Positions 14,802 to 49,012 of a stretch of 64,000 nt of DNA are shown in pieces. The stretch lies in assembly GCA_937925685.1 (NCBI GenBank), contig CALAMI010000008.1:142191-206190 (forward strand), in the 5' to 3' direction. Every line of letters starts with the position of its first letter. The first letter of the stretch is position 1. The translations under genes and the position numbers were made by a program. The DNA comes from Candidatus Binatia bacterium. GTDB taxonomy: Bacteria; Desulfobacterota; Binatia; HRBIN30. The notes below the pieces were generated by a model that worked only from the letters and a program-made list of their open reading frames with translations, was not told where the DNA came from and did not search any database.

Positions 14802-14813
14802 CTCCTTCTCCGT

Positions 14814-16358: not shown

Positions 16359-16380
16359 CGCGAAGCCTCCTACCGCGAAG

Positions 16381-18914: not shown

Positions 18915-18934
18915 GTATTGGCTCCTCGATGCTG

Positions 18935-22953: not shown

Positions 22954-22959
22954 CCTTGT

Positions 22960-32235: not shown

Positions 32236-32781
32236 ATGAAGACGTCGACTGGAATGCGTTGGCTGAAAGAGCTGTGGTTGGTCGTTCGAGTGGTGGGAAC
32301 GTTCTTGCTGATTATTCTCCTCGTGTTCTTGGCGAGCGACTACGCACCCGTGGCGGAGCGGGTGAATTTCGCTGTCTGGATGGCCCGCTTCGCTACATGG
32401 GGGAGTTCGTTTTTTCTGCAACTTCTTGGTCCCCTTCTGGGTTTTGCCGTGTCCGTGGATGGAACCCGGATCAGCGCTGGTGGTTTCGCAGTCGACGTGA
32501 CCGAAGCGTGCTCCGGTGTGGTCCCGACAGCAATTTACAGCGCTGCTGTGATCGCATACCCGGCATCGTGGAGCGCTCGCTGCGTCGGGTTGGCACTGGG
32601 GGCCGTGGTGATTCATGCGTTGAACGTGTTGCGGGTGGTGGGGTTGTTTTTGGTTGGTCTGTTTGCCAACCCCTACTTTCACTACACACATGTGTACTTG
32701 GCTCAGGCGTTGATCATCGTCGCCGCGGTGGCCACGTGGCTTTATTGGGCGCAACGGTTCGTGAATGTCTCTAGCCGTTGA
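32236..32781 (+). CDS. exosortase/archaeosortase family protein (minimal, 181 aa)
   Basis: Five hydrophobic helices. Catalytic-Cys motif GGFAVDVTEACSGVVPT and the N..R motif IHALNVLRVVGLFLV, characteristic of exosortases (EpsH-like). Confidence 0.75.
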   Translation: MKTSTGMRWLKELWLVVRVVGTFLLIILLVFLASDYAPVAERVNFAVWMARFATWGSSFFLQLLGPLLGFAVSVDGTRISAGGFAVDVTEACSGVVPTAIYSAAVIAYPASWSARCVGLALGAVVIHALNVLRVVGLFLVGLFANPYFHYTHVYLAQALIIVAAVATWLYWAQRFVNVSSR

Positions 32782-33382
32782 GCCGCTGAAGTTCCTTGGC
32801 CGCCTATTGGTGGCGTTTGTCGCGTTCTTTGCTGCCTGGCTCGCTATTGGCCCGGCGTACACGTCCATGTTGGCAGCGTTGGCTGAGCTTACGGTGAGCG
32901 TCGTGGATCGGCCGACGCACGTTTGGTCCCAAGGAACTACTGTGTTCTTTTGGCCTCGGGGCTACCCGGTGCCGACAGCCCCTCCGAGTATTGCCGCGGA
33001 GTGGATTCAAGCGAACACAATTTTGCTTCTTGCCTTGATGGTTGCCACCGCGGCCCCAACATGGCGAGCCAAGGGCAAACGCATGCTCATCGCTCTTGTC
33101 CTGGTGCTCCTCTGGCAGGTCCTCGATGTTACCTTGGCCATTGAGTTCGGGTATGCCACGCAGTTGGATCCTTATTCGTACAATGCTGCTACAAGATACC
33201 GGCTCGCCTTGTTTACGAACTTGGCCATGTACTTGGACACGCAAATCATTCCGTTCATGATTTGGGCGGGTATTCACTTCCGTGAGTTGTTAGCGATTGC
33301 AGGCACAGTGCACGGCAGGGAAGCTCTGGCTGGGGGGCGGGCACGCCGTGGAAGGGCGACGTCGAAACGTTATTCCGCTTGA
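32765..33382 (+). CDS. polytopic membrane protein overlapping the exosortase by 17 nt in another frame (possible exosortase partner/EpsI-like or second half of a split gene)
   Basis: Hydrophobic helices (LLVAFVAFFAAWLAIGPAY, TILLLALMVATAAP, MLIALVLVLLWQVL, LALFTNLAMYL, IIPFMIWAGIHF); the start codon is uncertain. Confidence 0.45.
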   Translation: MSLAVEPLKFLGRLLVAFVAFFAAWLAIGPAYTSMLAALAELTVSVVDRPTHVWSQGTTVFFWPRGYPVPTAPPSIAAEWIQANTILLLALMVATAAPTWRAKGKRMLIALVLVLLWQVLDVTLAIEFGYATQLDPYSYNAATRYRLALFTNLAMYLDTQIIPFMIWAGIHFRELLAIAGTVHGREALAGGRARRGRATSKRYSA

Positions 33383-36300
33383 ATCGACTCCAACCGGAAA
33401 AGGTGAGGCGCAAGTGCCCGGGCGGTACTCTCTATTTCGATCCATAGGGTAACAGGACCTGAAAACGGCTGCGACCTGGCCGCGGCAATCCGCAAGTGCC
33501 CGCCGCTCGCGCGTTGGGCTAACAGCGTTCCAGCTCGAGCATCCCCAGTTAACCGTGCCCGTACCGCTTGGAGCGCTGCTGGTTCATAACGAATCGAAAC
33601 CTCGAGGGCGGTGAACGGGACGGGAGAAAGGATGTTGTAAGGGAAGCGGTGAACCATCGTGCGGCCACGCCGTGTCAGGCGCGGCGACCCCCGGTGGAGT
33701 CTAACCGGCGCATCGATAGCGAGCGTCGACGAAGCTTGCCACGACCCGTTCACGTCGCCCAAGAATATACCGATGAAGTTCTGGCCGCCCGCTGCCTCTA
33801 GTAAAGGAGTGTAAGCAATAGCTCCAGCGATACATGGAACGGCGGAGGGTTGGGGTGAAATGAGTTGCTGGTTCGGTAGCGGATCAGGTAGGGGTAAAAA
33901 GATCCACGGCGATCCACAGTGGCTGGCTGCCGGGAAAGCCCCGATGGCACCGACAACGTACTGAAGAACGAGCGCAGCGTCTGCAGCCGTTACCTGGCCA
34001 GAGGCGTTCACATCCGCGGCGAGAAGCGCGGCGGCATCGAGGGAGCGCATACCCACGAGGTACTGCAAAATGGCCACCGCATCGCTTGCGCTGACCGGTG
34101 AAATAGCAAGCGCGAGGCTAGACGATGGCTCGAGTTGCAAGGGGCCCGTCGGCACGGAGGTAAAAGCAAACGTTCCGTTGCCGTCTGTAATTGTCTCGAT
34201 CGGTGGGTTGGTGAGACGCACCCGAACCCCAGCCATCGGCCGCCCGTTGCCATGATACCGAACAGTGCCGGAGACCGAGGTGGTAGGTACCGGCGTGAAT
34301 GTGGGGGAGGGAGTGATGGAAGGCGTGCGTGTGGGACTCGCAGAGGCACTTGGAGAAGGCGTGCGGGTAGGGGTGCTGGATGCAGTGGCTGTGCGGCTAG
34401 CCGTTTGCGATGGAGTTGCGGTGACGGTGGCCGAAGGAGTGGCTGTGAGAGAGGGCGTAGCGGTACGTGTGGAGGTGAAGGGTACGGTTGGAGTGGGCGT
34501 TCGAGTAGGCGTCGTCGTTCGCGTGTCCGTGGCTGTTGGGGTCCATGTGCTTGTGGGTGAGGAGGAAGGGGTTGGGGTCGCCGTTGGTGTGAGGCTCGGT
34601 AAAGGTGTGTGAGTAGCTGTTGGGGTTGCGGTCAGCGTGTGCGTAAAAGTGGGTGTCAGGGTCGGTGAACGGGAAGGCGTTAACGTCCATGTAGCTGTTG
34701 GCGTCCGGGTAGGCGTGAGAGTCATCGTGAACGTGGGTGGGAGAGTGTGAGTCGCGGTTGCAGTTGACGAGGGCGTAGCCGTCGACGACGGGGTAGCCGT
34801 CTGGGTTGGCGACGACGTGTGAGTCGGACTCAGTGTTATTGTCGGGGTTTGGGTCGGCGGCAAAGTGGACGTGCTCGTTGGCGTTTGCGACGGCGTTCCT
34901 GTTGCGGTCGGCGTGGGTGTTTCCGTGGCAGTTGCGGAGATCGTCGCCGTCCACGTGAAGGTGGCAGTCGCACTGGGCGTAGGGGTAAATGAAGGTGTCC
35001 GGCTGGCGGTTGCCGTTCGCGACGGGGTTGCGGTTGCCGTTGCAGTGCGCGTAGGTGTGGCCGTCGGGGACGGGGTAAAGGTGCGGCTGGGAGTGATCGT
35101 AAAGGTCGTGCTAGGGGTACGCGTGGGTGTGGGCGTTGGCGAGAAGCTGCGGGTTGGCGATGAGCTTGGTGTCGCTGTGGGCGATCGGCTTGGGGTCCAA
35201 GTGGCTGTGGCCGTAACGGTTGGAGTCTCCGTTGCGGTGCGGGTTTCTGTCGGCGTAAACGATGGGCCTGTGTATGGGTAGACGAACTGCATTGCAGCGA
35301 TGTCATCCGCGCGTACTTGAGCACAACGTCCATCGTTGTGGGCTCGATAGTACATGGTGGCGTCCTTCAGCGTGAAGTTCGGTTCTGTCGGGTTTTCCGA
35401 CGAATGTCCGAGCCCGATACTGTGGCCCACTTCGTGAGTCAGTACCTCGGCAACTAGACAGGGCGTCCAGAAACTAGGGCACTGGCTCGACCACCCATTG
35501 TTGAGCACGATCTTGCCTGTAGTGATGGCAATGAAAGTCGTTCCGTTGACGGTCTTTTGGCTGATGGTGCTCGAACAATACCCCCCGATGCCTAGGGTTC
35601 CCGAACAGTTACTCGGATCGGAGATTTCTCCTCGTGGGTCGTCAAAAATGATTCGATTGTAGGCGCAGCCTCCATATCCTAGGGGTGTCGGAGTCGGGAA
35701 ACCTGGAGCCGGTGTGGGCGTGGGAGCGATGAGCCCCCCATAATCGAGCACCAGTCCTGCCCCCGGCACGCTGCTCCACGCAGCCAATGCATCGCTCACC
35801 GCTTGTATGGACGCAGCAACACCAAGGCCTGCGTCGGTAGTGCTCACATACGACACGGGCGTACCTGTGTCTGCCTCATGCCAGCGGGCCGGCGGGCTAC
35901 CGAGCAACGTGAACGCTGCGTGGTACTCGTAGAGCCCGTCGTCCGGTCCGGCCGGGATTGTGGGAGTGGGTCTAGGTAGAGGTGAAGAATGGACCGAGGG
36001 AAAACCAACCAGGTGCCGAACGCGCTCGACGAATGCCTGCAAATCTTCTTCGCGAGGGGCTGGCGAGACAAAGGCTCCATCGGGATTGAGCAGCGCTGTG
36101 CCCTGGCCGAGCTCCCGCACCACGACCGAGGTGCCATTGCCACGGCGGCGAATGCCGAATTTACCCCAGCCCAGGGAGTTTGTTTGCCACACACCGCCCC
36201 CGTTTCGCACGAGGAACAGGAGGACTTCTTCCTGCAGGAAAAACTGGGGTGCGCCGAAAATCCACTCGATGCGGTCGGCCACTTGGCCACCAGGCAGTTG

Positions 36301-36558
36301 CAACACCACACTGGGCTCGACGATGGGTCCCTTGAGAACCTCGTAAACCTCGATGGTGATGCGAGTGACAATGCTTTGGTCGATCTCGTCGATAAAGGAG
36401 CCGATGGCGGAGACGCGGCCGAGAACGATCGCTTCCGAGCTTTCCACTAGCACTTCATCGCTCATCGGCACGAAAGTCGTAGCCTCGCTCGTCGATCGGA
36501 GGGGGACAGTCGAGAGGAAGGTCAAAGAAAGGAACCACACGTGAAATTTGCGATTCAT
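33370..36558 (-). CDS. secreted matrixin-like metzincin protease with Thr/Pro linker, CarboxypepD_reg-like domain, dockerin-like module and a conserved C-terminal domain
   Basis: Signal peptide MNRKFHVWFLSLTFLSTVPL with AAGGA RBS. HEVGHSIGLGHS (HExxHxxGxxH) at nt 35401-35436. ~330 aa TPT/TPS linker. VSGTVRYHGNGRPMAGVRVRLTN...TDGNGTFAF. SASDAVAILQYLVG...ADVNASGQVTAADAALVLQYVVG dockerin-like. Confidence 0.8.
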   Translation of the reverse strand: MNRKFHVWFLSLTFLSTVPLRSTSEATTFVPMSDEVLVESSEAIVLGRVSAIGSFIDEIDQSIVTRITIEVYEVLKGPIVEPSVVLQLPGGQVADRIEWIFGAPQFFLQEEVLLFLVRNGGGVWQTNSLGWGKFGIRRRGNGTSVVVRELGQGTALLNPDGAFVSPAPREEDLQAFVERVRHLVGFPSVHSSPLPRPTPTIPAGPDDGLYEYHAAFTLLGSPPARWHEADTGTPVSYVSTTDAGLGVAASIQAVSDALAAWSSVPGAGLVLDYGGLIAPTPTPAPGFPTPTPLGYGGCAYNRIIFDDPRGEISDPSNCSGTLGIGGYCSSTISQKTVNGTTFIAITTGKIVLNNGWSSQCPSFWTPCLVAEVLTHEVGHSIGLGHSSENPTEPNFTLKDATMYYRAHNDGRCAQVRADDIAAMQFVYPYTGPSFTPTETRTATETPTVTATATWTPSRSPTATPSSSPTRSFSPTPTPTRTPSTTFTITPSRTFTPSPTATPTRTATATATPSRTATASRTPSFTPTPSATATFTWTATISATATETPTPTATGTPSQTPTSTSTLPPTQTPTITLSPTHTSSPTQTATPSSTATPSSTATATHTLPPTFTMTLTPTRTPTATWTLTPSRSPTLTPTFTHTLTATPTATHTPLPSLTPTATPTPSSSPTSTWTPTATDTRTTTPTRTPTPTVPFTSTRTATPSLTATPSATVTATPSQTASRTATASSTPTRTPSPSASASPTRTPSITPSPTFTPVPTTSVSGTVRYHGNGRPMAGVRVRLTNPPIETITDGNGTFAFTSVPTGPLQLEPSSSLALAISPVSASDAVAILQYLVGMRSLDAAALLAADVNASGQVTAADAALVLQYVVGAIGAFPAASHCGSPWIFLPLPDPLPNQQLISPQPSAVPCIAGAIAYTPLLEAAGGQNFIGIFLGDVNGSWQASSTLAIDAPVRLHRGSPRLTRRGRTMVHRFPYNILSPVPFTALEVSIRYEPAALQAVRARLTGDARAGTLLAQRASGGHLRIAAARSQPFSGPVTLWIEIESTARALAPHLFRLESIQAE
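33943..34107 (-). other. dockerin-like module of the metzincin protein
   Basis: ISPVSASDAVAILQYLVGMRSLDAAALLAADVNASGQVTAADAALVLQYVVGA (two Ca-loop/helix repeats, the first degenerate). Confidence 0.55.
34279..35259 (-). repeat. Thr/Pro/Ser linker-coding tandem repeats inside CDS
   Basis: Repetitive ACNCCNAC-type codon repeats encoding TPT(A/E/R/S)TPT; coordinates derived from residue counting. Confidence 0.5.
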
Positions 36559-36664: not shown

Positions 36665-39600
36665 TTACTCGAGGAGCGCACTCTGAATTCGAATCGCACC
36701 GGCACGGAGTCTAACGGGGCCATCGAACACGAGCCAGGCGACAGCCTCTTGTCCGCTGCGAGCTTCGATGCGCGCCAGGGCAAGAGCCACGGAACCGGAT
36801 TCGACGTGGTAGGCGGTGAGCGATTTGTAGCCCTGGTCAGGAAGCACGACCCGCGGCGGGTCAAGCCGAGCGCCGTCGAACCACACGCGAATGGTTGCGG
36901 CGTTCCACGGTGTTTGCGAAGCGATGGTGATGGGAACGCGCCATGTCCGCCGGTGGCGTATGGCTTTCCCCACACGGACAAGCGCTCGTTGGGACGAAGC
37001 CACACTGACGCGCTGGGAGCGGGCCACCATTCCCGAAGCAGCAGGTGCGAAGCTCCCGTTACAGTCGCCCACCATCCCCGTCACGAAATCAATGCCGCTC
37101 ACGTCGCTCGTGGCAGCGGCTAGCGACACTTGTAGCACAGAGCTGCAACTTTCCCTGCGAGCTGGAGTAGGGGTGGCCATCGGAGGTAAGGGGCCGTGAG
37201 GTTGCACAGCCCAGGTGCCGACGCATGACTGAGGGCCGAGAGCCCCAACGACATAACTTAGAATCATCGCTGCGTCTTTGGCGGTGATCGACCCGCTGCC
37301 GTCGGCGTCGCAAACCGCTCGCTGCAGCGTTGAGAGTTCCTCTAAGCCGGTAGCGGCCCGCAACACGACGACGGCATCGCTCGCCGTGACAGTCGACTGG
37401 TTGTTGGTGCCTCGGGGAACGAGCCCCTGTGCTTCCTCAGGAAGCGGAACCACGTTTACCTGACCTACCGGAACTTGTTCGATTTGATAGATCCCGTTGG
37501 GCCCAGTAGTCGCGCTTCGAATGACGCCATTGCTCTCAGCCTGCACCGGAACATCGGGAAGTGGCTGACCTGGCACAAAGTACGCGACGGCACCACTCAA
37601 GCGAATCGCTCCGACTGTGGGGGTAGCCGTCGGCGAGGGGTTCGGGGTGACCGTTGCGGAACGTGTCGGCGTTCCAGTGTGCGTGGGTGTGCTGGTCGAC
37701 GTTGGCGTCGGTGTGCGGCTCGGTGTTGCCGAATTGCTTGGCGACGCCGAAGCCGTCGGAGTTCGCGTCGGCGTCGAGGTTACCGTACTCGTGTTTGTTG
37801 GGGTGGCAGAAGGGGTTCGGGTCAGAGTCGCCGTGAGGGTTGGTGACGGTGTCGCAGTGACGGTGGGAGTGCGTGTGGTCGTGTTCGTTGCCGTCGGTGT
37901 GCGCGACGGGGTGTACGTTCGTGTTAGAGTGGGTGTCGTTGTTGCGGTGGCGCTGGGAGTGGCTGTGCGCGTGGGGGAAGAGGTAGGGGTAAACGTGTGA
38001 GTCGGTGTGCGGGACGGAGTTGGTGTCAGCGTGGGAGAGGGCGTGTTGGTTGGGGTACGGGTAGCGGTCTGTGACGGAGTGTGGGATGGGGTCGAGGTCG
38101 ACGTGAAGGTGGGGGTGTTGCTGCGCGTGGGGGTGGAACTGCGGGTGAATGTTGGCGTGAAGGTGTTCGTTGGCGTTGGTGTGGCCGTTGGGGTAAAGGT
38201 TTGCGTCGGGGTACGTGAACGGGTCTGGGTTGCGGTGTGAGTGGGCGTAGCTGTCCGCGTCGCCGTAAACGTGGGGGTTCGGGTACTCGTCGAGGTGAAG
38301 GTATTCGTTGGGGTGAATGTTTCCGTCGGAGTACTAGAAGGGGTCCAGGTCGGTGTCCAAGTTGGTGTCGCTGTTCGGGTCGGCGTAAAGCTGGGCGTGG
38401 CTGTGAAGGTTGACGTCGGTGTCCAGGTAGGGCTCAGGGAATTCGTGGGCGTGGAGCTTGCCGTCTTCGTTGGTGTGGGCGAAGCTGTTGGTGTCGCCGA
38501 GGCAGTTGTCGTCGGGGTTGCGGCCACAGTTGCCGTGAATGTCGCCGGCGGACGAAGTGTGCTAGTGGGCGTAGGCGAGCTGGTAGCAGTCGGTGGGGTG
38601 AAAGCTAGACTGGCAACGCGGATTCTCGCGGAGTCAGGCACGGAGAGGAAGAGGTGCCCGTCTTTGTCGATGGTAAGACCGGTGACGCGACTGAGCCCTG
38701 CCTCCAGTGCCGAGCCGCCATCGCCGGAATCTCCGAGACTACCGCTGCCAGCCACGGTGGTGATAACTCCGGTGACCATATCCACGCGGCGAATGCGATA
38801 ATTGCCGGCGTCGGCAATCAACAAGTTGCCAAATCGGTCGAAAGTGATGCGGGTCGGCCCAGAAAGCAGGGCTTGGGTTGCAGGCCCGCCGTCACCACCA
38901 AAGCCAGCCCAACCAGTGCCTGCGACTCGTTCGAGGAGCCCGCCACGAATGCGTCGCACAACGTTGTTTCCTCGATCCACGAAATACACGTTGCCGTCGG
39001 GGCCAAGGGCAACGTCCGTGGGAGCGCCAAGTGGCGACTGAGCGGCAACGGCGCCATCGGGTGGGTTGCCCCAACTCCCGTTGCCGGCGACGGTGGTGAT
39101 GATTCCGCCTTCCACCTTGCGGATGCGGTTGTTTTGAAAATCGGCAATGTAAGCGATGCTTCCATCCGCTGAAACAGCAACCGCGTAGGGGTTGGCCAGT
39201 GTGGCTTGAGTCGCTGGAATGTTATCGCCGTTATATCCAAACCCGCCTGTACCTGCGATTGTAGAAATGATGCCGCTGGCAGCGTCAAGTTTGCGGACGC
39301 GGTGGCCGCCCAACTCAACGATGTAAAGGTTGCCGAAGCTGTCGCTGTCCACGTCGAAGGGATTCGTGAGTTGCGCGGCAATGGCTAGTCCGCCATCACC
39401 ACACGATGAGCCCGAGCCACAAGGCGTTCCGTTACCGGCAACAGTCGTGATTGTACCGGAGAGCGAACTCACCATGCGCACGCGATGATGGGCGCTGTCG
39501 GCGACGTAAAGCTCGAAGCCGCCACCAGTCGCTAGCGGCCGGAGGAAAAGCCCCATCGGATCGAGCAGGGCATTTTTAGCGACACCTCCATCGCCAACGC

Positions 39601-40816
39601 CACCGCCAGCAAGAGGCACAACCACGCCGGACGGAGTGACGGCCCGGGTGCGATTTTCTGGATGTGGAGGAGTGGTCATATACTGGCCGACGTAAACCGA
39701 GCCCGTGTCCCAGTCAGCGGCCAGGCCCGTCAGCATGGCGAAGCTCGTCTGGGTAGCCGGTTGGCCATCGGGAGACGGTGAGCGCACACCGGTACCGGCC
39801 ACAGTCTTGACGATCGACTGCAGCGTAATGACTCCGCCAATCGATTCGATGCGGCGTACACGGTTATTGCCGACGTCCGTGAAGAACAAATTTCCCATGA
39901 GATCGAATGCCAGCCGCCCTGGATTGAAAATTCGCGCGCTAGAAGCAGGGCCGTTGTCTCCTGTGAACCCCTGCACACCGTCTCCGGCAATGGTGGTGAT
40001 GATACCTTGAGAGTCTACTCGCCGAATGCGTGAGTTTCCGGAGTCGGCGATGAACAAATTCCCCACGCTGTCGAACGCGATGTGCCACGGATTCGCTAGC
40101 TTTGCTTGAGTTGCCGGTCCACCGTCTCCGGCGAAACCCCAAGCGCCCGTCCCTGCAAAGGTAGTGATGATCCCGCTGGCACTAATTTTTCGAATCCGAT
40201 TTCCATCTGTCTCGGCAACGTACAGGTTCCCAGCCGAGTCGAACGCAACGCCTCGCGGGGCATTGATGCTTGCGCTGGTCGCTGAGCTGCCGTCGCCGCT
40301 ACTAAACGCCCGCCCGTCGCCCACGGCCGTAACGATGACTCCATCGCGCGCGATCTTACGCACCCGATGATTTAGGGTGTCGGCAACATAGACCGCCCCC
40401 CCAGACCCACAAGCGACATCGGTGGGGAAATTGAGCTGGGCGTTCACCGCCAGTCCTCCGTCCCCGGAGAATCCCCGCGCTCCCGTACCGGCCACGGTTT
40501 CGATGGTGAGCAAATCAAGGTCGACCTTGCGAACCCGATGGTTCAATCCATCCGCGATGAAAAGATTGCGGCCGCATACCGCCATGCCTCGTGGATCGAC
40601 GATGCCATTGATGGCCACACCACCGTCGCCAACACCGCCGCCCAAGACGGTATCAATCACGCCCTCGGGCGGAAGTTCGAGGGCCCAACCGAGCGAGGCC
40701 AGCATGGTTGTGACTAGGAAAAGTGAAGCGACGAGGGACGGCAAGAGCCGGTTGGCCGAGAAGCCGCAGCGCCGCATCGTTTCCCAGGGGGTTCCCGGAT
40801 TAGACCCTTCGATCAT
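36665..40816 (-). CDS. giant secreted NHL-repeat (six-bladed beta-propeller x2-3) protein with Thr/Pro linker, CarboxypepD_reg-like domain, dockerin-like module and the same conserved C-terminal domain as the metzincin
   Basis: At least 11 NHL-type repeats (LNHRVRKVD, NSRIRRVD, NNRIRKVE, GNYRIRRVD, AHHRVRMV and similar). ~330 aa TP linker. GAIRLSGAVAYFVPGQ...TGPNGIYQI. TASDAVVVLRAATGL...CDADGSGSITAKDAAMILSYVVGA. Confidence 0.8.
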   Translation of the reverse strand: MIEGSNPGTPWETMRRCGFSANRLLPSLVASLFLVTTMLASLGWALELPPEGVIDTVLGGGVGDGGVAINGIVDPRGMAVCGRNLFIADGLNHRVRKVDLDLLTIETVAGTGARGFSGDGGLAVNAQLNFPTDVACGSGGAVYVADTLNHRVRKIARDGVIVTAVGDGRAFSSGDGSSATSASINAPRGVAFDSAGNLYVAETDGNRIRKISASGIITTFAGTGAWGFAGDGGPATQAKLANPWHIAFDSVGNLFIADSGNSRIRRVDSQGIITTIAGDGVQGFTGDNGPASSARIFNPGRLAFDLMGNLFFTDVGNNRVRRIESIGGVITLQSIVKTVAGTGVRSPSPDGQPATQTSFAMLTGLAADWDTGSVYVGQYMTTPPHPENRTRAVTPSGVVVPLAGGGVGDGGVAKNALLDPMGLFLRPLATGGGFELYVADSAHHRVRMVSSLSGTITTVAGNGTPCGSGSSCGDGGLAIAAQLTNPFDVDSDSFGNLYIVELGGHRVRKLDAASGIISTIAGTGGFGYNGDNIPATQATLANPYAVAVSADGSIAYIADFQNNRIRKVEGGIITTVAGNGSWGNPPDGAVAAQSPLGAPTDVALGPDGNVYFVDRGNNVVRRIRGGLLERVAGTGWAGFGGDGGPATQALLSGPTRITFDRFGNLLIADAGNYRIRRVDMVTGVITTVAGSGSLGDSGDGGSALEAGLSRVTGLTIDKDGHLFLSVPDSARIRVASLAFTPPTATSSPTPTSTLRPPATFTATVAATPTTTASATPTASPTPTKTASSTPTNSLSPTWTPTSTFTATPSFTPTRTATPTWTPTWTPSSTPTETFTPTNTFTSTSTRTPTFTATRTATPTHTATQTRSRTPTQTFTPTATPTPTNTFTPTFTRSSTPTRSNTPTFTSTSTPSHTPSQTATRTPTNTPSPTLTPTPSRTPTHTFTPTSSPTRTATPSATATTTPTLTRTYTPSRTPTATNTTTRTPTVTATPSPTLTATLTRTPSATPTNTSTVTSTPTRTPTASASPSNSATPSRTPTPTSTSTPTHTGTPTRSATVTPNPSPTATPTVGAIRLSGAVAYFVPGQPLPDVPVQAESNGVIRSATTGPNGIYQIEQVPVGQVNVVPLPEEAQGLVPRGTNNQSTVTASDAVVVLRAATGLEELSTLQRAVCDADGSGSITAKDAAMILSYVVGALGPQSCVGTWAVQPHGPLPPMATPTPARRESCSSVLQVSLAAATSDVSGIDFVTGMVGDCNGSFAPAASGMVARSQRVSVASSQRALVRVGKAIRHRRTWRVPITIASQTPWNAATIRVWFDGARLDPPRVVLPDQGYKSLTAYHVESGSVALALARIEARSGQEAVAWLVFDGPVRLRAGAIRIQSALLE
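37238..37387 (-). other. dockerin-like module of the NHL-repeat protein
   Basis: TASDAVVVLRAATGLEELSTLQRAVCDADGSGSITAKDAAMILSYVVGALG. Confidence 0.55.
37613..38599 (-). repeat. Thr/Pro/Ser linker-coding tandem repeats inside CDS
   Basis: Encodes TPTxTxTPT runs; the opposite strand translates as V/G-rich ORFs, a tell-tale of this repeat. Confidence 0.5.
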
Positions 40817-42161: not shown

Positions 42162-43439
42162 ATGGTTCGGGGAAAAATGAAGTGGATGGTTGGCGCGGTG
42201 GAGACAGGAATTTGGAGCCTGGGAGCCTTCGTTGCCGGCTTGTTGATTGCGGTGGGAACATCGCAAGCTCAGTTCAGCCTCGCTTTCACCCAGCGAGCGT
42301 CAAATGGAACGGTGTATGAGGTACTGGTTGTGCCCAATGGGCCGCTCACCGCGGGAGCTGATGAGATGCGAATCACGACCATCGCGGGATCGACTTCTGG
42401 AGTGCAATCCTGCACCTCTCCTGGTGGTACTTCAGGCCAAAACACGTCAGCACTGGCGGGGGTCGACCCGAACATTGGCTCGTTGCACTCTTTTACGGAC
42501 GTTCGCCGCACGAACGTGCTAACGCCAAGTAACGTCTCTTCCGTATTGTTTAGCCCCGGCGGTGGGGGTCGGCTCACGATTGGTGGGATTGATATTTGCG
42601 CGAATGCTGCTGACTGCAGCGGGGGCGACCCGGACGCTCGGATATTCGACCTGGATGGAAATGTGGTCGTGAGCGGAGGCGTCACGGGCACTGCCATCCC
42701 AGCTGCATGCGTGGCAACCGGAGTCCCTGCTCTTTGTTCTTCGGGTCAACTTACCACTTTTGGTTTTGGGTTGCCCCGTGACAGCACAACCAAGGAGTGC
42801 AACAGCAAGCCAACGACAAATCGGACGGTGTGCGGGGCACCCCCAGAGGATGGTTTTACCGTCCCACCAGGCGGCGTGGTGGTGTTCATCTACAATGGTA
42901 ACCTGGCCAACCAGGGATTCAGTGTAGGAGCTGCTGGGTTCGGTATCGACACCGATGGGGTCAATAACCCGCAGTGCCCGGCGAACAGTGTCATCACGGC
43001 GGACGGGCAGAACCCTAGTGCGCCGCCACCGCCACCGCCGACGCCAACGAACACTCCAACCCAAACGCCGACGCCAACGGACACCCCGACTCTGACGCCG
43101 ACCTCGACACCAACGTTAACCCCCACACTCACGCCGACTTTGACGCCAACCCTGACGCCTACGCTGACACCGACGCAAACGCCGACAAATACGCCCACGC
43201 TGACACCGACGCAAACGCCGACAAACACGCCGACGCTGACGCCCACGCCGACAAACACACCGACACTGACTCCGACACGGACCTTCACCCCGACATTAAC
43301 GCCGACCGTGACTCCGTCACCCACGCCCCCGCCTATTCCTCTGATTCCTTCGCCGATATCGCCGGCTGGTTTGGGCATGATTGGCGGGTTGGCAGCGGCG
43401 CTGTTGTGGATGATGCGGCGTGCCGTTCGTCGAGCCTAA
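42162..43439 (+). CDS. secreted protein with PTxTPT linker and C-terminal PEP-CTERM-like sorting signal ([16 protein letters not shown]), paralog 1
   Basis: ATG 42162 preceded by AAGGAG (7 nt spacer). Signal peptide [38 protein letters not shown]-terminus [37 protein letters not shown]. The track ORF starts at 42060, probably too early. Confidence 0.7.
43017..43331 (+). repeat. tandem DNA repeats (36-nt unit ACGCTGACACCGACGCAAACGCCGACAAA[T/C]ACGCC) encoding a ([12 protein letters not shown])n linker
   Basis: Near-identical adjacent units at about 43161-43196 and 43197-43232, embedded in a longer PTxTPT-coding repeat. Confidence 0.6.
43332..43436 (+). other. C-terminal sorting-signal-like tail: Pro motif, hydrophobic helix and basic cluster
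   Basis: [34 protein letters not shown]-stop. Confidence 0.55.
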
Positions 43440-43477
43440 AGTCGTGATGTGAGCGAAATATTCGGGGCTGCGAAGCT

Positions 43478-44968
43478 GTGAGGATCGACCGAGGTTGCTG
43501 CATTTGGCGTTCTCGCGGCGTTGCAGCCCCAGCCGCTGTGGCTGTGGCGCTCTTCGCGTGGGGCAAGTTCGCCGAGGCGCAGTTGAATCAAGCTTCATCG
43601 CAACGAGCAGCTGACGGTACGGTTTATCAAGTCATCATCGTCCCTCCCGGTCCGTTAAATGCAGGTGCCGAAGAGGTCCGGGTAACTACGGTGGCCGGTG
43701 GAGTGCAGGGCCTCGTCTCGTGCTCTGGCGTGGTCGGGGGGCAGGCAGCTGCCGCACGGGCAGTCGTTGGTGCGGACCCAGGTGCAGGTCAAGCCCTCTT
43801 CCCTGCAGGACAAGTGTTAAGAACGACGGTTCTAAATCCATCCTCCCTAACGGTCTCGTTCTCGTCCGGAGGAGCCGGGAGGTTGACTTTTGGCTCCGGC
43901 CCCACTGGGCTTCAGATATGCCGCAATCCGGCGGACTGTACCGGTCCCGAAAACGTGGTGTCGTTGGTGCCAATTTCCACAGCTGATAGTAGCGTGCCGA
44001 AAGCATGCGTGCGCTCCAACGTCGCTGCGGGATGTACGAGCGCTACGGTGACCACGTATGCTTTCGGGTTGGACCAGGACAACGACGGGACTTGTGACGC
44101 TGCCCCCACCACCGATACAAACGTTTGTGCGCCTGCGCCGACAGACGGCTTTAGCTTGCCGGCTGGGCGGGCCATCGTCTTCGTTTACGATAGCGGGTTG
44201 TTGAACACAGGTTTCACGATCGGTGCAGCCGGCTTTGGTGTCGACACCGACGGCTCGAACGATCCCCAGTGCAGTGCCGGAACGGTCGTGAGTGCGGACG
44301 GCCAGAGCCAAAGTGCTCCGCCGCCCCCACCGCCTACGTTCACCCCCACGAATACACCCACCGAGACGCCGACGCCAACGAGCACCCCCACGGAAACTCC
44401 AACGGAAACGCCCACATCGACTCCGACGCCCACACCAACGGAGACGCCAACTGCGACTCCGACCAGGACCCCGACGCACACCCCCACGGAGACACCGACG
44501 AATACTCCGACGAACACACCGACTGAGACACCCACGCACACCCCGACGAATACGCCAACTCATACGCCCACGGAGACGCCTACGCACACCCCCACCGACA
44601 CCCCCACTCATACGCCGACTCATACGCCGACGAACACGCCGACGAACACTCCGACGCACACCCCGACACCAACTCCCACGAACACGCCCACCGACACCCC
44701 GACACGGACTCCAACATCCACCCCGACAGATACGCCCACTCCCACACCCACGTTCACACCGACACACACGATGACGTCGACACCGACTCTGACTCACACC
44801 CCCACACCCACGCGGACCCGCACGCCCACGCGCACACCGCCGCCTATTCCAGTGGTGCCATCGCCGCTTGCCCCTTCGGGGATATTGATGATCGTTTGCC
44901 TCGTGCTGGCTTTGGCTTGGCTTGCCGTGCGCCCAGGCAGGTTCTCTCGCCCCCGTGTGCTGCGGTAG
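43478..44968 (+). CDS. secreted protein with long PTxTPT linker and C-terminal PEP-CTERM-like sorting signal, paralog 2
   Basis: GTG start. Signal-like N-terminus. Domain-level identity to paralog 1 ([42 protein letters not shown] vs [42 protein letters not shown]; [21 protein letters not shown] vs [21 protein letters not shown]). C-terminus [43 protein letters not shown]. Confidence 0.7.
44312..44845 (+). repeat. tandem codon-level repeats encoding a (TPTxTPT)n linker
   Basis: ACNCCNACNGAGAC/CACAC units; ~178 aa of TPT(E/H/N/D)TPT. Confidence 0.55.
44846..44965 (+). other. C-terminal sorting-signal-like tail of paralog 2
   Basis: [40 protein letters not shown]-stop. Confidence 0.55.
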
Positions 44969-45265
44969 TGCCCTCGCGAGAAGTGGCCTGAACCCATCTG
45001 CGGCTACCCGCGCGAAACCCCGCGTCTCCATCGCAGTCTGGGTGCGAAAAAAGTTTCTCGCGCTGCCGTAGGGAAGAGAGCGTCTGCTGAGCTTTCTGCT
45101 TGGAAGCGACGATAACTCAGGCCTCGACGGAGTCCGAAAAATTTAGCGCGTCCGCCGTGAAGGGGTGGAAATTGCATCGGCCCTTCGAAAATGACTTGCG
45201 AAGGTCACTTCGGTGAGAAACAAAGGTTGCCGTCCACGAGCGTTTCTTAAGGATGGCGGGTTGGC

Positions 45266-47758
45266 ATGAGAGGGCCTCAAGGTCTGCAAAAAGTCTTTGC
45301 CTCGGTTCAAGGGCCTGGCTCGGTATGGCTTGCCGTGTTGATGAGCATGGCCTTGGGCGGGGCTCCTAAGGCTCACGCGCAAACCCGTAACGTGTCGTTG
45401 CAGCCACCTAGCGTCGCACTGCCTGTGTCCTCAACGGTTACCCTGGAGTTGCGCATTGACGACCCAAGCGAGATTGTGGGTTACAATCTGGGCGTGAGTT
45501 ACGATTCGTCTTTGCTCGCTGTAGACACTGATTTAACCTTCAGTACGCCCGGATGCGTTGCTCAGGCAAATCGCCAAGATCCTGGGAAAATCTGTATTGC
45601 GATTGCTTGTGCCAGCCCTTTGCCGACGGCCAATACGACTCTGGCAGAGGTTAGGTTCCGCGGTGTTGCCAACGGAGTCACCTCGGCCGCGTTTGCCAAT
45701 GTCATGTGCGGGCCTAGCAGTGTGCCGGCCTGTCTCCTAGAGCGCGAAAGCGGGGGTTCCTTTGCGTGCAACACTTCTGGCACCACGTTCCAGATAGGCC
45801 CCACGCCCACGCCGACACCGACAGCGACAAACACTCCGACGCTGACTGCGACGGTCACCCTTACTGCGACCTTCAGCCGAACTCCGACCAGTTCACCCAG
45901 CTCGACAAACACTCCCTCGGCAACTCGAAGCCCCACTCCAACGTTTTCGGCCACAGTGACGCGCACCTCAACGCCCACGATGACTGCAAGCCCAACGCCT
46001 TCTTGGTCGCCCACCTTCTCCCCGACGCGAAGCTTTACGCGCACCCCCACAGCAACGGCTTCGCCGACGCACACGAGGACAGCGACGGATACGGCAACCC
46101 GTTCGCCGACGCCAACCCCGTCAGCGACGCACACAGCATCGATGACGATGACCCGAACCCCTACTCGAACTGCGACCCTAACCCCTACGGTCAGCGCTAC
46201 GCTGACGCTTACAACCACCGCAACCAGCACGAACACGCCGACCGCGTCCCGCACGTCGACGCCGAGTCCGTCGGCGACTGCGACCTGGAGTGCGACTCCT
46301 ACGGTAAGTCAGACAGCTACACGCACTTTGTCGCCAACGTTGACATCGAGTCCTACTTGGTCGGTGACCGGAACCCCAACCACGACACCAACCGCGACGC
46401 CGAGCTGGACGCTAACTTCGACTTTCACGGTGACGCCAACTCGCACTCCGAGCGCAACGCCGTCAAACTCGGCCACCGCGTCGCTTACGAGAACAGCGAC
46501 TTGGTCGGCCACCGCGAGCCCATCCTTTACCCCATCTGTGACGAGAAGTCCGACTCGCACTGTCACGGCTACCTTGCCTGCCACACCGACCCCGACGGGG
46601 ACCGGAACACCAACGGCCACCAATTCTCCGAGCGCAACGCGGACTGCAACACCGTCGCGAAGCCCGACAAATTCGCCTACGCTCACTGCCTCGAGCACGG
46701 GCACGGCGACGGCGACCCCCTCGAACACCGCCAGCCTCACCCCTACACGAGCGAGCTCACCGACACGAACTGCTTCCTTTTCCGCCACAGCCAGCCGAAC
46801 GCCAACTCCGACACCGACTCCGTCCGTTACAGCGATGCCATCAGCGTCGCGCACCGTAACAGCGTCTGCCACTCCTTCGCCGAGTGCGTCGCCAACCGCG
46901 TCGGCAACGATGTCGGTTGCCGTTACTTTCTCTCCCACCAAAACGCTTAGCCCGACGCCCACAGGCACCCCGTTAGCAGCCACGCCCACGCAGACAGCGA
47001 CCCGTCAACCTACGGCGACGCGGACCGAATCCCGCACGCCCACAGACACCGTGACGCCAACGGTTTCACCAACTTACACCAATGTCCCTACCGCCACCGC
47101 GTCTTGGACGTTTACCCCCCTGCCAACGGCCACGTATACAACCAGTGGGACACAAACTCCGACCGAAACCGCAACGACCACGGCTACAGCCTCTGAAACT
47201 CCGAGCGTGTCCCCATCGCCAACGCTCACGCGAACCTTAGAGCCAACGGCAACGGACACCCCCACTGCCACCAGCAGTCCGAGCCCAAGTATTACCCCGA
47301 CAGTAACTTACTCACCGACCTCGGCCTTTGAGGAGTCACCCACGGCGACGGCCACCGCGCAGATACCCCCGACGCAGGAGCCTTCCGCGACGCCGCCGCC
47401 GACGGAGACCATCGAGATTCCAAGTCCGTCCCTGACGGCAGAGCCAACGGTTACGCCGACAGCGACGCCACAGTCCTCGCCAACTGCGAGTGCCACGGTT
47501 ACTGAGTCGCCTCCTTTACCCACTCCGACTGTGCAACTGGGCACTTGTCCGGGCGACTGTGATGGCGATGGTCAGGTTGCGGTATATGAGATCGTGCGCA
47601 TGGTGAACATTTTACTCGAAGCATTTTCTGTGGAAGTGTGCGCAGCAGGAGACTTGTGTGGCGATGGTCGGATTACTGTCGACGAAATCGTGCTTGCGGT
47701 TCGCGCCTTGCTGCTGGGATGTCCTTTGCCGGTTTCACCCGACCGTTGCTCGCTCTAA
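45266..47758 (+). CDS. scaffoldin-like secreted protein: N-terminal cohesin-like domain, ~575 aa Thr/Pro/Ser/Ala linker, C-terminal dockerin-like domain
   Basis: Signal peptide; cohesin-like pattern TVTLELRIDDPSEIVGYNLGVSYDSSLLAV...TTLAEVRFRGVANGVTSAAFANV; C-terminal CPGDCDGDGQVAVYEIVRMVNILL...GDLCGDGRITVDEIVLAVRALLLGC (two Ca-binding loop/helix repeats). Confidence 0.75.
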   Translation: MRGPQGLQKVFASVQGPGSVWLAVLMSMALGGAPKAHAQTRNVSLQPPSVALPVSSTVTLELRIDDPSEIVGYNLGVSYDSSLLAVDTDLTFSTPGCVAQANRQDPGKICIAIACASPLPTANTTLAEVRFRGVANGVTSAAFANVMCGPSSVPACLLERESGGSFACNTSGTTFQIGPTPTPTPTATNTPTLTATVTLTATFSRTPTSSPSSTNTPSATRSPTPTFSATVTRTSTPTMTASPTPSWSPTFSPTRSFTRTPTATASPTHTRTATDTATRSPTPTPSATHTASMTMTRTPTRTATLTPTVSATLTLTTTATSTNTPTASRTSTPSPSATATWSATPTVSQTATRTLSPTLTSSPTWSVTGTPTTTPTATPSWTLTSTFTVTPTRTPSATPSNSATASLTRTATWSATASPSFTPSVTRSPTRTVTATLPATPTPTGTGTPTATNSPSATRTATPSRSPTNSPTLTASSTGTATATPSNTASLTPTRASSPTRTASFSATASRTPTPTPTPSVTAMPSASRTVTASATPSPSASPTASATMSVAVTFSPTKTLSPTPTGTPLAATPTQTATRQPTATRTESRTPTDTVTPTVSPTYTNVPTATASWTFTPLPTATYTTSGTQTPTETATTTATASETPSVSPSPTLTRTLEPTATDTPTATSSPSPSITPTVTYSPTSAFEESPTATATAQIPPTQEPSATPPPTETIEIPSPSLTAEPTVTPTATPQSSPTASATVTESPPLPTPTVQLGTCPGDCDGDGQVAVYEIVRMVNILLEAFSVEVCAAGDLCGDGRITVDEIVLAVRALLLGCPLPVSPDRCSL
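45800..47530 (+). repeat. very long low-complexity T/P/S/A linker-coding region
   Basis: TPTxTAT / SPTPT runs throughout; the opposite strand and other frames give long V/G/D-rich pseudo-ORFs. Confidence 0.5.
47531..47755 (+). other. dockerin-like C-terminal module
   Basis: DCDGDGQVAVYEIVRMVNILL and DLCGDGRITVDEIVLAVRALL repeats. Confidence 0.6.
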
Positions 47759-47788: not shown

Positions 47789-49012
47789 TCAGACGTAGCG
47801 TATCAAGGAGCGGGACAAACGGACGACCAACTCCTCCGGACTCCGAGCGATCACCACCAGCGTGCACAACGGTGCGTAGTGCAGGAACGCACTGTCGGCC
47901 GTGCCCCATCGTGTGGGGTCTTCAGGCTGCACCCAGAGTACAGCCCGACTTCGATGGCGAAGTTGGGTGAGGATTTCGGCGCGTGGCGGGCGGTAATTGT
48001 TCCGCCCATCGCCGAGGATCAAGAGCACCGTGTCGCGATCGATGCTCCGCAGTAGCTCCGGTGGCAGAGTGGCCAACACGTTCCCGAAGTCCGAGCGCGC
48101 GTAGACATCCAACGGGGCCAAGGGTTGAACGTGGTCTCGCTCTACTTCGAGTTCTACCGGGCGGTCGACAAAGGCAAAGAACTGGGTGCGGTGGAAGAAG
48201 GGCTTTGCGGCTGCAAGGAGTTGGAGGAAGAATTGACTCGCAGTCGCCACCGAATGCGACAGGTCGCACAGGGCCACGAGGCGCGGCCGGCGGGGCCGTT
48301 GGCGGTGGAACACGGGTTCGACGAAAAGCCCGCCGGTGCTCACGGCTTTTCGGAACGTGGCCCTGAAGTGCAACGCTCCGCGCCTTGCCCGCTTTCGCCG
48401 TCGCGCCAAGCGTCCGTGGAACGTTGTAGCTAGCTTTTGCATGGCCGGACGCAAACGTTCCACATCTGCAGGATCGAACTCCGTCCACGGGCGCTGGAAG
48501 AACGGTTTGTGGTTCCCACACGGCCCGAACTCAGGTACGCTTTGACCGGTCGTGCGGTTCAGAGACGCTGGGTAAAGCGTTTGCGATTCCCCATGGGCGT
48601 CGTATCTGCGGAGGAGTTCGCGGACGTGGCGTTGCCAACCGCTCCGAGCGGGGTGTTGGAGCGGCGAGGTGTGACTCTCGGGTTCGGGTGAAATCCGCTT
48701 TGGCTGACCGCCGTCGCCCGTAGAAGGACCGCCCTTGCGGTGCCGCTTTTGGCGCAGTCGGCGTTGCTGCGGAGCGAGGGGGAAGAACTGGTCAAAAAGG
48801 GCGTCGAACGTTGATCGATCGTCGGCGGTCTTCACCATGCAAGCTGCCAGTGTTTCTCGCAGCACAAAACGCTCTACCCCCATAACTGGGATGGCGTTGA
48901 AGGCATCCAGCACTTCCGCAGGGCTCAGGTCGATTCCGTGCGAGCGTAGGGCGCGCACGAAACTAAACAGGCGTTGGATCATGGAAGGGCTCCACGGGGA
49001 TTCAGCGACCAC
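47789..49012 (-). CDS. VWA domain-containing CoxE-like protein (MoxR partner)
   Basis: N-terminus MIQRLFSFVRALRSHGIDLSPAEVLDAFNAI typical of CoxE/VWA-MoxR partners. DLSHSVATASQFF (MIDAS-like DxSxS). Its start overlaps the MoxR stop by 11 nt. Confidence 0.8.
   Translation of the reverse strand: MVAESPWSPSMIQRLFSFVRALRSHGIDLSPAEVLDAFNAIPVMGVERFVLRETLAACMVKTADDRSTFDALFDQFFPLAPQQRRLRQKRHRKGGPSTGDGGQPKRISPEPESHTSPLQHPARSGWQRHVRELLRRYDAHGESQTLYPASLNRTTGQSVPEFGPCGNHKPFFQRPWTEFDPADVERLRPAMQKLATTFHGRLARRRKRARRGALHFRATFRKAVSTGGLFVEPVFHRQRPRRPRLVALCDLSHSVATASQFFLQLLAAAKPFFHRTQFFAFVDRPVELEVERDHVQPLAPLDVYARSDFGNVLATLPPELLRSIDRDTVLLILGDGRNNYRPPRAEILTQLRHRSRAVLWVQPEDPTRWGTADSAFLHYAPLCTLVVIARSPEELVVRLSRSLIRYV

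Follow-up and report, generated by a model that had tools for sequence, protein, structure and literature searches.

A probable C-terminal sorting signal in Candidatus Binatia, likely cognate to a divergent clade of XrtH-like exosortases

Two tandem genes in a 64 kb stretch of Candidatus Binatia DNA (hereafter the window, meaning the whole stretch that was analysed) encode proteins, designated pA and pB, that end in a tail of unfamiliar sequence. These are likely to be Sec-exported surface proteins in which the last ~38–44 residues serve as an exosortase-type sorting signal, processed by an XrtH-like enzyme and its partner protein. The tail fits no catalogued IPTL-, PEP-, MYXO- or VPXXXP-CTERM class. 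Tail and enzyme together most probably represent a novel form of the known exosortase sorting system, one that appears to be characteristic of Candidatus Binatia. The finding is an incremental addition to an established paradigm and involves no new principle.

C-terminal sorting signals are the route by which annotation pipelines recognise surface-anchored proteins, and a new signal class with a paired enzyme opens the surface proteome of a lineage. Because neither Pfam nor NCBIfam recognises the present tag, ~100 protein clusters are left ‘hypothetical’ or mislabelled, for instance as DedD, MYXO-CTERM or DOMON. The named sources of the carriers are mostly metagenome-assembled genomes of Candidatus Binatia, an uncultured phylum-level group. 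With curated HMMs of the tail and of the enzyme clade, a minimal 180-aa exosortase would have a defined set of substrates open to testing; such models would also add a data point on the co-evolution of exosortase specificity and signal.

Table 1. Features of the window relevant to the proposed sorting system
Feature	Position	Strand	Basis
XrtH-like exosortase, 181 aa, proposed processing enzyme	32236..32781	+	XrtH top model
XrtH-associated-like membrane protein, 205 aa	32765..33382	+	Sub-threshold NF041730
Secreted M10-like metalloprotease, PT linker, dockerin	33370..36558	-	Dockerin_1, 28.6 bits
NHL beta-propeller protein, PT linker, dockerin-like module	36665..40816	-	TEN_NHL 183 bits, NHL 105 bits (Pfam)
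pA, tail-bearing surface protein (predicted), 425 aa	42162..43439	+	ORF, RBS, homologs
Predicted sorting tail of pA, aa 388-425	43323..43436	+	57.8 bits against the tail HMM
pB, tandem paralog of pA, 496 aa	43478..44968	+	46% identity to pA
Predicted sorting tail of pB, aa 453-496	44834..44965	+	46.3 bits against the tail HMM
Protein with cohesin-like domain, long PT/ST linker, dockerin-like C-terminus	45266..47758	+	Cohesin (Pfam) 19.8 bits, sub-threshold

Architecture of the tandem paralogs

An earlier note on this DNA had described two tandem paralogs, each composed of a signal peptide, a domain of ~250 aa, a PPPPPP/PT linker and a tail. Both ORFs were found as described (Table 1), and the same order of parts was read in both sequences. 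The pA gene starts with the ATG at 42162, preceded 8 nt upstream by an AAGGAG ribosome-binding site, and the N-terminus MVRG(R/K) is also that of the pA homologs. The pB gene starts with a GTG at 43478. From the sequence, the signal peptides are predicted to span aa 1–36 of pA (ending SQA, followed by QF) and aa 1–34 of pB (ending AEA, followed by QL). The conserved domain that follows occupies aa 37–287 (~250 aa) in pA and aa 35–280 in pB; the two copies are 46% identical (BLASTP, E 2e-62) and share eight conserved Cys. The linkers (aa 288–387 in pA, aa 281–452 in pB) have PPPPPP and, after it, PTxT repeats.

Homologs of the pA N-domain are 38–80% identical over that domain, and its AlphaFold model is all-beta (pLDDT 82, pTM 0.80). 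The tandem partner is kept at loci L001-4 and L055/56. One public assembly leaves pB unannotated and has an antisense ORF there instead. Further ORFs that overlap the locus on either strand, among them 43847–45031 (minus strand, 394 aa, Arg-rich) and 42890–43378 (minus strand, Gly/Val-rich), were considered and rejected as genes, being by-products of PT-repeat coding.

The tail is a modular, strictly C-terminal domain

The tails of pA and pB consist of the motif IP(L/V)(I/V)PSP, a hydrophobic helix and an Arg cluster. None of the remaining ORFs of the window carries a tail of this type. A tail profile of 40 positions was searched exhaustively against 1.84 billion (1.84e9) protein representatives. 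A word-indexed search with the same profile returned four short fragments, and the counts given here are from the exhaustive search. Among the 1.84e9 proteins, 99 cluster representatives matched at E<=1e-3 and 17 at E<=1e-10, and the recurrence of the tail is therefore far beyond chance. Without exception, the matches of the 99 clusters end 1–15 residues (median 4) from the C-terminus.

The consensus motif reads (P/R)T(P/R)PP[IV]P[VL][VI][PSA][ST]PxSP[AS]G and is followed by a hydrophobic helix of ~16 residues with a terminal W-x-L, then Arg-Arg. P7 (96/96), P12 (104/105), G17 (105/106), W30 (91/103) and the RR pair were all near-invariant. An N-terminal hydrophobic leader was present in 60 of the 66 full-length carriers.

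The N-terminal portions of the carriers were diverse. When the 99 profile matches were taken together with two fragments from the word-indexed search, and P0008 was left out, only 13 of the resulting 100 proteins had the pA-type domain. When 133 non-redundant carriers were clustered by BLAST, 22 clusters were obtained; hhalign reduced these to some small groups and several larger ones, of which at least three are mutually unrelated. Domains recognised on the carriers included choice-of-anchor D (seven) and Q, ice-binding, DUF11 and SdrD_B; choice_anch_D and choice_anch_Q domains were found in eight of 80 carriers. The tail is thus a real, modular and strictly C-terminal domain borne by several unrelated N-domain groups, and the proposal that it has the tripartite architecture of exosortase/archaeosortase sorting signals is upheld. 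Conversely, the pA-type domain occurs in other proteins with other tripartite tails (APTLS, APALS, APAMSP), so that at least four different tails accompany it, as is typical of choice-of-anchor families.

Two to three tail genes were found per contig in the window and at L072, L071, L074 and L077, and further tail genes lie outside the conserved gene island described below at L012 and L016. Such a distribution fits an arrangement of many substrates to one enzyme. At L016 the carrier is adjoined by BamA and TamB, which identifies the host as a diderm bacterium.

Comparison of the tail with catalogued CTERM models

The tails were compared with the CTERM models of NCBIfam 20.0 (June 2026) and Pfam. 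The pA and pB tails, the family consensus and 80 full-length carriers reached no CTERM model, and the pA tail gave no match of any kind to either library at E<=10. The earlier note had called the motif previously unlisted; the comparison with TIGRFAM-type models agrees with that. As a positive control, a canonical IPTL tail scored 50.1 bits on TIGR04174 with the same tool, and it also matched the ‘midcut-by-XrtH’ model. In the reverse test, the HMM built from the new tails gave this control 4.5 bits. TIGR04174 (cut-off 20.5 bits) had no match at all from the window tails, the consensus or the 80 carriers. The tails also contain no PEP motif and gave no match to TIGR02595 at E<=10. On MYXO-CTERM (TIGR03901) the consensus scored 15.1 bits, below the cut-off of 20. 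The MYXO-CTERM signature requires an invariant Cys, and only three of the 100 tails contain any Cys. With VPXXXP-CTERM (TIGR04143, cut-off 30) the consensus reached 17.3 bits, the match being confined to the helix region, and one of the 80 carriers matched this model at E 0.005.

By eye, tails with APTLS, APALS and LPVLSSP could be placed on a continuum leading to IPTL-CTERM. This idea was rejected, as none of them matches TIGR04174; the tail HMM scores the APTLS and APALS tails at <=4.5 bits and the LPVLSSP tail, a true member, at 44 bits.

An XrtH-like exosortase and a putative partner lie upstream of tail genes in several lineages

A minimal exosortase had been noted 9 kb upstream. The distance and size stand, the gene for the 181-aa enzyme ending 9.4 kb before pA, but the enzyme is XrtH-like rather than generically minimal. 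It scored 86.6 bits on TIGR04177 (XrtH, cut-off 86), 47.1 bits on the exo_archaeo signature TIGR04178 (cut-off 23) and 35.1 bits on Exosortase_EpsH PF09721 of Pfam (cut-off 25.7), and ORF 32236–32781 thus belongs to the exosortase/archaeosortase superfamily. XrtH was the best model for each enzyme scored: the L011 enzyme reached 86.4 bits, while those of L001 (82.7), L006/L010 (80.6) and L033 (66.0) fell below the cut-off. The conserved residues Cys92 (in TEACSG), Arg133 (NVLRV) and His149/His152 (YFHYTH) are ones that we take to be the catalytic residues of the family. Orthologs of 49–85% identity retain ACSG, N-x-x-R-V and YFH-x-THVY without change.

In the window the partner gene starts before the exosortase gene has ended, and a partner gene always follows the exosortase gene. 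The partner in the window scored 13.9 bits (E 0.033) on NF041730 (XrtH_assoc). Its orthologs scored 17–31 bits on this model, the only one matched, and all are below the cut-off of 35.

In the window and at L001-4/L009, L006, L011, L033 and L078, at least six lineages in all, tail genes have the exosortase and partner 4–10 kb upstream. The enzymes of the other loci are 85, 75, 67, 51 and 49% identical to that of the window. L075 retains the partner gene alone, at the edge of its contig, where the exosortase is cut off. No exosortase was found within the 7–9 kb of available sequence upstream of the tail genes at L021 and L045, or within 10 kb of P0013 and P0014, proteins that share the N-domain but end in different tails. 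A scan of genome contigs with the exosortase alignment, using very specific peptide patterns, returned three loci only. The region as a whole is syntenic in these relatives, so vertical inheritance alone may account for some of the adjacency. As far as sequence reaches, gene neighbourhood supports the link to the nearby exosortase drawn in the earlier note, and the tail is probably cognate to this divergent XrtH-like clade.

Proposed processing and alternative explanations

By analogy with the sortase/LPXTG, ArtA/PGF-CTERM and XrtA/PEP-CTERM systems, the following course can be proposed. After removal of the signal peptide, the helix of the tail would tether pA and pB in the inner membrane, with the beta-sandwich domain held in the periplasm on the extended PT linker. 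At the outer face of the inner membrane, the XrtH-like exosortase (Cys92, Arg133 and His149 or His152) and its partner would recognise the Pro-rich motif and cleave there via a thioacyl intermediate. The protein would then be released, or transferred to an acceptor for display at the cell surface.

IPTL-CTERM is the catalogued signal of XrtH, in keeping with the match of the IPTL control to the midcut-by-XrtH model. Among the closest known systems is IPTL-CTERM/XrtH (TIGR04174, TIGR04177, NF041730, and NF033207 for midcut-by-XrtH), and the tail could be merely a divergent IPTL-CTERM signal whose novelty reflects a poorly fitting HMM. Points of likeness are a minimal enzyme of ~180 aa with XrtH as its best NCBIfam match, just above the cut-off in the window, an XrtH_assoc-like gene directly after it, and a tripartite C-terminal tail whose motif opens with IP, as IPTL does. 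APTLS and APALS moreover stand at the aligned position in the same N-domain family. However, the T, L and W-G of the IPTLxxWG core are missing, and an invariant P-x-x-x-x-P-x-x-x-x-G forms a Pro-rich signature instead. The reciprocal HMM tests separate the two classes, and the APTLS and APALS tails fall outside TIGR04174 as well. The enzymes of the clade score 66–86.6 bits, from below to just above the XrtH cut-off, and the partner, at 14–31 bits, is always below its own. A mere divergent IPTL-CTERM signal is therefore considered unlikely.

A hydrophobic helix with basic residues suffices for membrane anchoring, and many tail genes are not beside an exosortase in the available sequence, so the tail might also be an unprocessed C-terminal anchor that holds PT-linked domains at the inner membrane and has no dedicated enzyme. 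This is quite unlikely, as an anchor alone would not need a conserved Pro-rich motif; the strongest conservation lies in that motif, outside the helix, and is near-invariant across unrelated N-domains. Furthermore, other sorting-type tails can stand in place of this one on the same domains, and the exosortase neighbourhood is conserved. Among the carriers are also the choice-of-anchor D and Q families, which by definition bear alternative sorting signals. Processing by another enzyme, such as a rhombosortase, a myxosortase/CPBP protease or a second exosortase encoded elsewhere, would agree with the labelling of fragment P0018 as MYXO-CTERM by JGI and with the sub-threshold scores of the consensus on MYXO-CTERM and VPXXXP-CTERM. 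It is nevertheless very improbable, given the rarity of the Cys that MYXO-CTERM needs and the absence of a GlyGly motif from the tails. With the XrtH-like and partner HMMs applied to the fetched loci, the XrtH-like gene was the sole sorting enzyme near tail genes, and at the loci having precomputed Pfam listings these contained no further sorting-enzyme family.

The preferred reading, an exosortase-type signal processed by the XrtH-like enzyme and its partner, shares features with two further systems. PEP-CTERM/XrtA (EpsH) has the same succession of signal peptide, passenger domain, short motif, transmembrane helix and Arg cluster, serves many substrates per enzyme, and also relies on an enzyme of the Exosortase_EpsH superfamily. 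The enzyme here, in contrast, is half the size of XrtA, and no clear EPS locus adjoins it, apart from glycosyltransferases and an MsbA-like ABC exporter 4–10 kb away. VPXXXP-CTERM/archaeosortase B (TIGR04143/TIGR04144) has a Pro-rich V-P motif and gave the best, although sub-threshold, CTERM match of the consensus; ArtB was also the third-best model of the window enzyme, at 56 bits. That match covered the helix and not the motif, and the system is archaeal, whereas the host here is a diderm bacterium.

A literature search for XrtH, IPTL-CTERM and exosortase H matched only a study of Methylomirabilis (PMC8671808). Its S-layer protein mela_00855, of 312 aa, offers a precedent for the preferred reading: it has a signal peptide and an IPTL-CTERM, and its C-terminal tail was undetected by proteomics (PMC8671808). 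Homology of the pA N-domain to mela_00855 was considered and is unsupported, as none of the 13 proteins from the profile search is named as Methylomirabilis.

A conserved gene island around the tandem pair

The exosortase, its partner, the dockerin-bearing M10 and beta-propeller proteins and the tandem tail-bearing pair appear to form a conserved island in Candidatus Binatia. A more far-reaching reading, which we regard as unlikely, is that the tail and the XrtH-like enzyme make up a separate, lineage-wide Candidatus Binatia sorting system inside a conserved surface-assembly island that also takes in the cohesin-like protein. The tandem pair would then be either the S-layer itself or the scaffold that anchors a cohesin-dockerin-type complex on the diderm surface, with the passenger domain swapped between lineages and the tail and genomic position kept.

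Several neighbours in the window recur elsewhere. The gene for the M10-like protease, which scored a sub-threshold 22.1 bits on Peptidase_M10 of Pfam, is syntenic at L015, L055/56 and L075. The cohesin-like protein is without the sorting tail, and its gene is syntenic at L055/56 and L059. The NHL beta-propeller gene lies immediately upstream of the tail-bearing pair at many loci.

Architecture of pA and pB

The secreted paralogues pA and pB were as the earlier note had described them (tandem genes, leader, domain, linkers and tail), as the ORFs, the leader and the identity between the two confirmed. pA starts at an ATG with AAGGAG 8 nt upstream, and its MVRG(R/K) beginning is common to its homologues. 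Each protein opens with a hydrophobic N-terminal leader whose end reads AxA|Q and continues with a domain of ~250 residues with eight conserved cysteines (46% identity between the two, E 2e-62), then PPPPPP and an extended PTxT linker before the tail, [37 protein letters not shown] in pA and [43 protein letters not shown] in pB. No further ORF in the 64 kb window carried such a tail.

Across the pA/pB region the PT-repeat coding DNA gives rise to spurious long ORFs, both in alternative frames and antisense; the antisense ones are artefacts of the coding repeats. In a public assembly with an identical pA (L076), the gene caller annotated a 394-aa Arg-rich antisense ORF (window 43847-45031, -) in place of pB. 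pB, and not this ORF, is the genuine gene, because its N-domain is 46% identical to that of pA and the tandem partner is conserved.

Features of the window and of related contigs and proteins
Feature	Coordinates or members	Strand	Comment
Glycosyltransferase-like ORF	within 21766-28455	-	
MsbA-like ABC exporter	24129-25940	-	
845-aa protein	25918-28455	-	GH2-like TIM barrel joined to GT2 domain, C-terminal TM segments
XrtH-like exosortase	32236-32781		181 aa ORF; TIGR04178, Pfam Exosortase_EpsH and XrtH matches
Partner	32765-33382		overlaps exosortase ORF; weak match to XrtH-associated membrane protein
M10-like metalloprotease protein	33370-36558	-	long PT/ST linker, dockerin or dockerin-like module
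NHL-propeller protein	36665-40816	-	long PT/ST linker, dockerin or dockerin-like module
pA	42162-43439	+	425 aa ORF
pB	43478-44968	+	496 aa ORF, adjacent to pA
Cohesin-like-domain protein	45266-47758	+	long PT/ST linker, dockerin or dockerin-like module
Tail-bearing genes at island position	L033 5920-9145; L077 10001-12058; L078 10001-11302		
Homologues of window 42270-43022	P0006, P0007, P0010, P0012-P0014, P0121, P0122		other tails or fusions

The tail as a modular C-terminal domain

The two tails of the window together with three tail fragments gave a profile of 40 positions, which was searched exhaustively against 1.84 billion cluster representatives. At E<=1e-3 its matches numbered 99 proteins, of which 17 reached E<=1e-10, always at the C-terminus. 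Two tail fragments were added to these hits and P0008 was dropped; in every one of the resulting 100 tail-bearing sequences the match ended 1-15 residues from the C-terminus (median 4), and only 13 had the pA-type N-domain. The 133 non-redundant carriers, metagenome loci included, formed 22 BLAST clusters, which profile-profile comparison reduced to two superfamilies, one of them that of pA, and a third group, besides small groups and singletons. Pfam and NCBIfam domains on carriers were choice-of-anchor D (seven proteins), choice-of-anchor Q, ice-binding, DUF11, SdrD_B and HYDIN-type Ig. An N-terminal hydrophobic leader was seen in 60 of 66 full-length carriers, and a PT-rich linker immediately ahead of the tail in 60/78. 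Named sources were MAGs of Candidatus Binatia (P0031, P0036, L009) and MAGs labelled bacterium HR30 (L011) and Myxococcales (L010). The tail is genuinely a domain, C-terminal and modular.

The consensus was (P/R)T(P/R)[31 protein letters not shown], with near-invariant P7 (96/96), P12 (104/105), G17 (105/106), L24, W30 and RR. Conservation peaked ahead of the helix, in the Pro-rich segment, which fits the prediction that an enzyme recognizes it; a plain membrane anchor, the alternative reading of the tail, has no need of such a segment. Judged by its sequence, the tail probably works like an exosortase sorting signal.

Elsewhere, the pA-type domain was found with other tripartite tails (APTLS, APALS, APAMSP after DUF4215 Cys-rich repeats), none of which matched a curated CTERM model, and in fusions with ice-binding-like domains. 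Two homologues with other tails, P0006 and P0013, come from MAGs labelled 'Deltaproteobacteria'. Such tail swapping is choice-of-anchor behaviour, and the varied tails are independent evidence for the tail as a swappable sorting module. Sequence search puts the pA-type domain in a small family of about 16 clusters. A confident AlphaFold model of pA residues 1-287 (pLDDT 82, pTM 0.80) predicted an all-beta fold following a disordered leader, for which Foldseek returned no PDB counterpart. A beta-sandwich rich in disulfides, carried on a long PT stalk, would suit a surface protein with a structural or adhesive role.

Comparison with curated models

Neither in NCBIfam 20.0 (June 2026) nor in Pfam was any CTERM model reached by pA, pB, the isolated tails, the consensus or 80 full-length carriers, so that the tail is indeed unlisted there, as first proposed. 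This negative result was validated by a canonical IPTL tail, put through the same tool, which was detected by TIGR04174 (50.1 bits) and the 'midcut-by-XrtH' model (38.9 bits); in the reverse test it scored just 4.5 bits on the new tail HMM. The only traces, both sub-threshold and over the helix, came from VPXXXP-CTERM (17.3 bits, cut-off 30) and MYXO-CTERM (15.1 bits, cut-off 20). Assignment of the tail to IPTL-CTERM, PEP-CTERM, MYXO-CTERM or VPXXXP-CTERM was rejected on the outcome of the membership tests.

The exosortase and its neighbourhood

The 181-aa ORF, a predicted exosortase-family protein, scored 47.1 bits against the TIGR04178 signature (cut-off 23) and 35.1 bits against Exosortase_EpsH (cut-off 25.7); the top subfamily model was XrtH, at 86.6 bits (cut-off 86). 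Orthologues on related contigs scored 86.4, 82.7, 80.6 and 66.0 bits against XrtH. Their partners, the small membrane proteins encoded directly after them, scored 17-31 bits against the model of the XrtH-associated membrane protein (cut-off 35). The clade therefore lies on or under the lower limit of the curated XrtH family. The window enzyme is thus a borderline XrtH-like protein. ACSG, N-x-x-R-V and YFH-x-THVY were invariant in orthologues 49-85% identical to it.

The exosortase and partner lay 4-10 kb upstream of the tail genes in the window, in L001-L004 and L009 (72%-identical pA relative), L006 (60% relative), L011 (Bacterium HR30) and the much more distant contigs L033 and L078 (enzyme identity 51% and 49%). 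The proximity pointed out in the earlier note recurs down to 49% enzyme identity; synteny in these relatives extends over the entire region, and the link is read from gene neighbourhood. L075 had the partner gene alone, at the contig start, and no exosortase was found in L021 and L045 within the 7-9 kb available upstream of the tail genes.

This island was recurrent, its order being M1 peptidase (-), exosortase (+), partner (+), [M10-dockerin protein (-)], beta-propeller protein (-), tail protein (+), tail protein (+), [cohesin-like protein (+)], VWA (-), AAA (-), HTH (-). The slot downstream of the beta-propeller gene was always taken by genes with the tail, in most cases two in tandem (~300-550 aa); position and tail were kept while the N-domain family changed (L033, L077, L078). 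The propellers upstream in L077 (Ca. Binatia GCA_046327925.1) were of the LVIVD kind, not NHL. Carriers outside the island were found in L012 (ice-binding) and L016 (SdrD_B, adjoining BamA and TamB); L072 had three carriers.

Proposed mechanism

By analogy with sortase/LPXTG, ArtA/PGF-CTERM and XrtA/PEP-CTERM, the protein would be exported by Sec and its leader cleaved, after which the tail helix would tether it transiently in the inner membrane with the Arg cluster cytoplasmic. The XrtH-like Cys enzyme and partner would then recognize the Pro-rich motif, and after cleavage the protein would be either released or passed to an acceptor, and then displayed at the surface. A published precedent for a related tag is the Methylomirabilis lanthanidiphila S-layer protein mela_00855 (312 aa), which is made up of a signal peptide plus an IPTL-CTERM domain and whose C-terminal tail proteomics did not recover (PMC8671808). 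As described, its size and architecture resemble those of the short pA-family members P0010, P0013 and P0014. Tail and enzyme bring no new principle; the tail is of use in annotation, and in defining what belongs to an uncultured lineage's surface proteome.

Other neighbouring genes

Three large secreted proteins (M10-like, NHL-propeller and cohesin-like) flank the tail pair and are syntenic with it in many contigs. Scores in them were 28.6 and 21.9 bits for Dockerin_1 and a sub-threshold 19.8 bits for Cohesin, hinting at a candidate cohesin-dockerin surface assembly. The glycosyltransferase-like ORF, MsbA-like exporter and GH2/GT2 protein, 4-10 kb from the exosortase, could form a candidate polysaccharide export module. 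At 47789-49877 (-), a MadC-like VWA protein (164 bits) and a MadB-like AAA ATPase (287 bits), both below cut-off, were followed by an HTH protein; these genes were conserved beside the tail pair in nearly all related contigs. At 13332-20416 (-), two DUF1800/DUF1501 gene pairs follow each other, and one member has a TAT signal.
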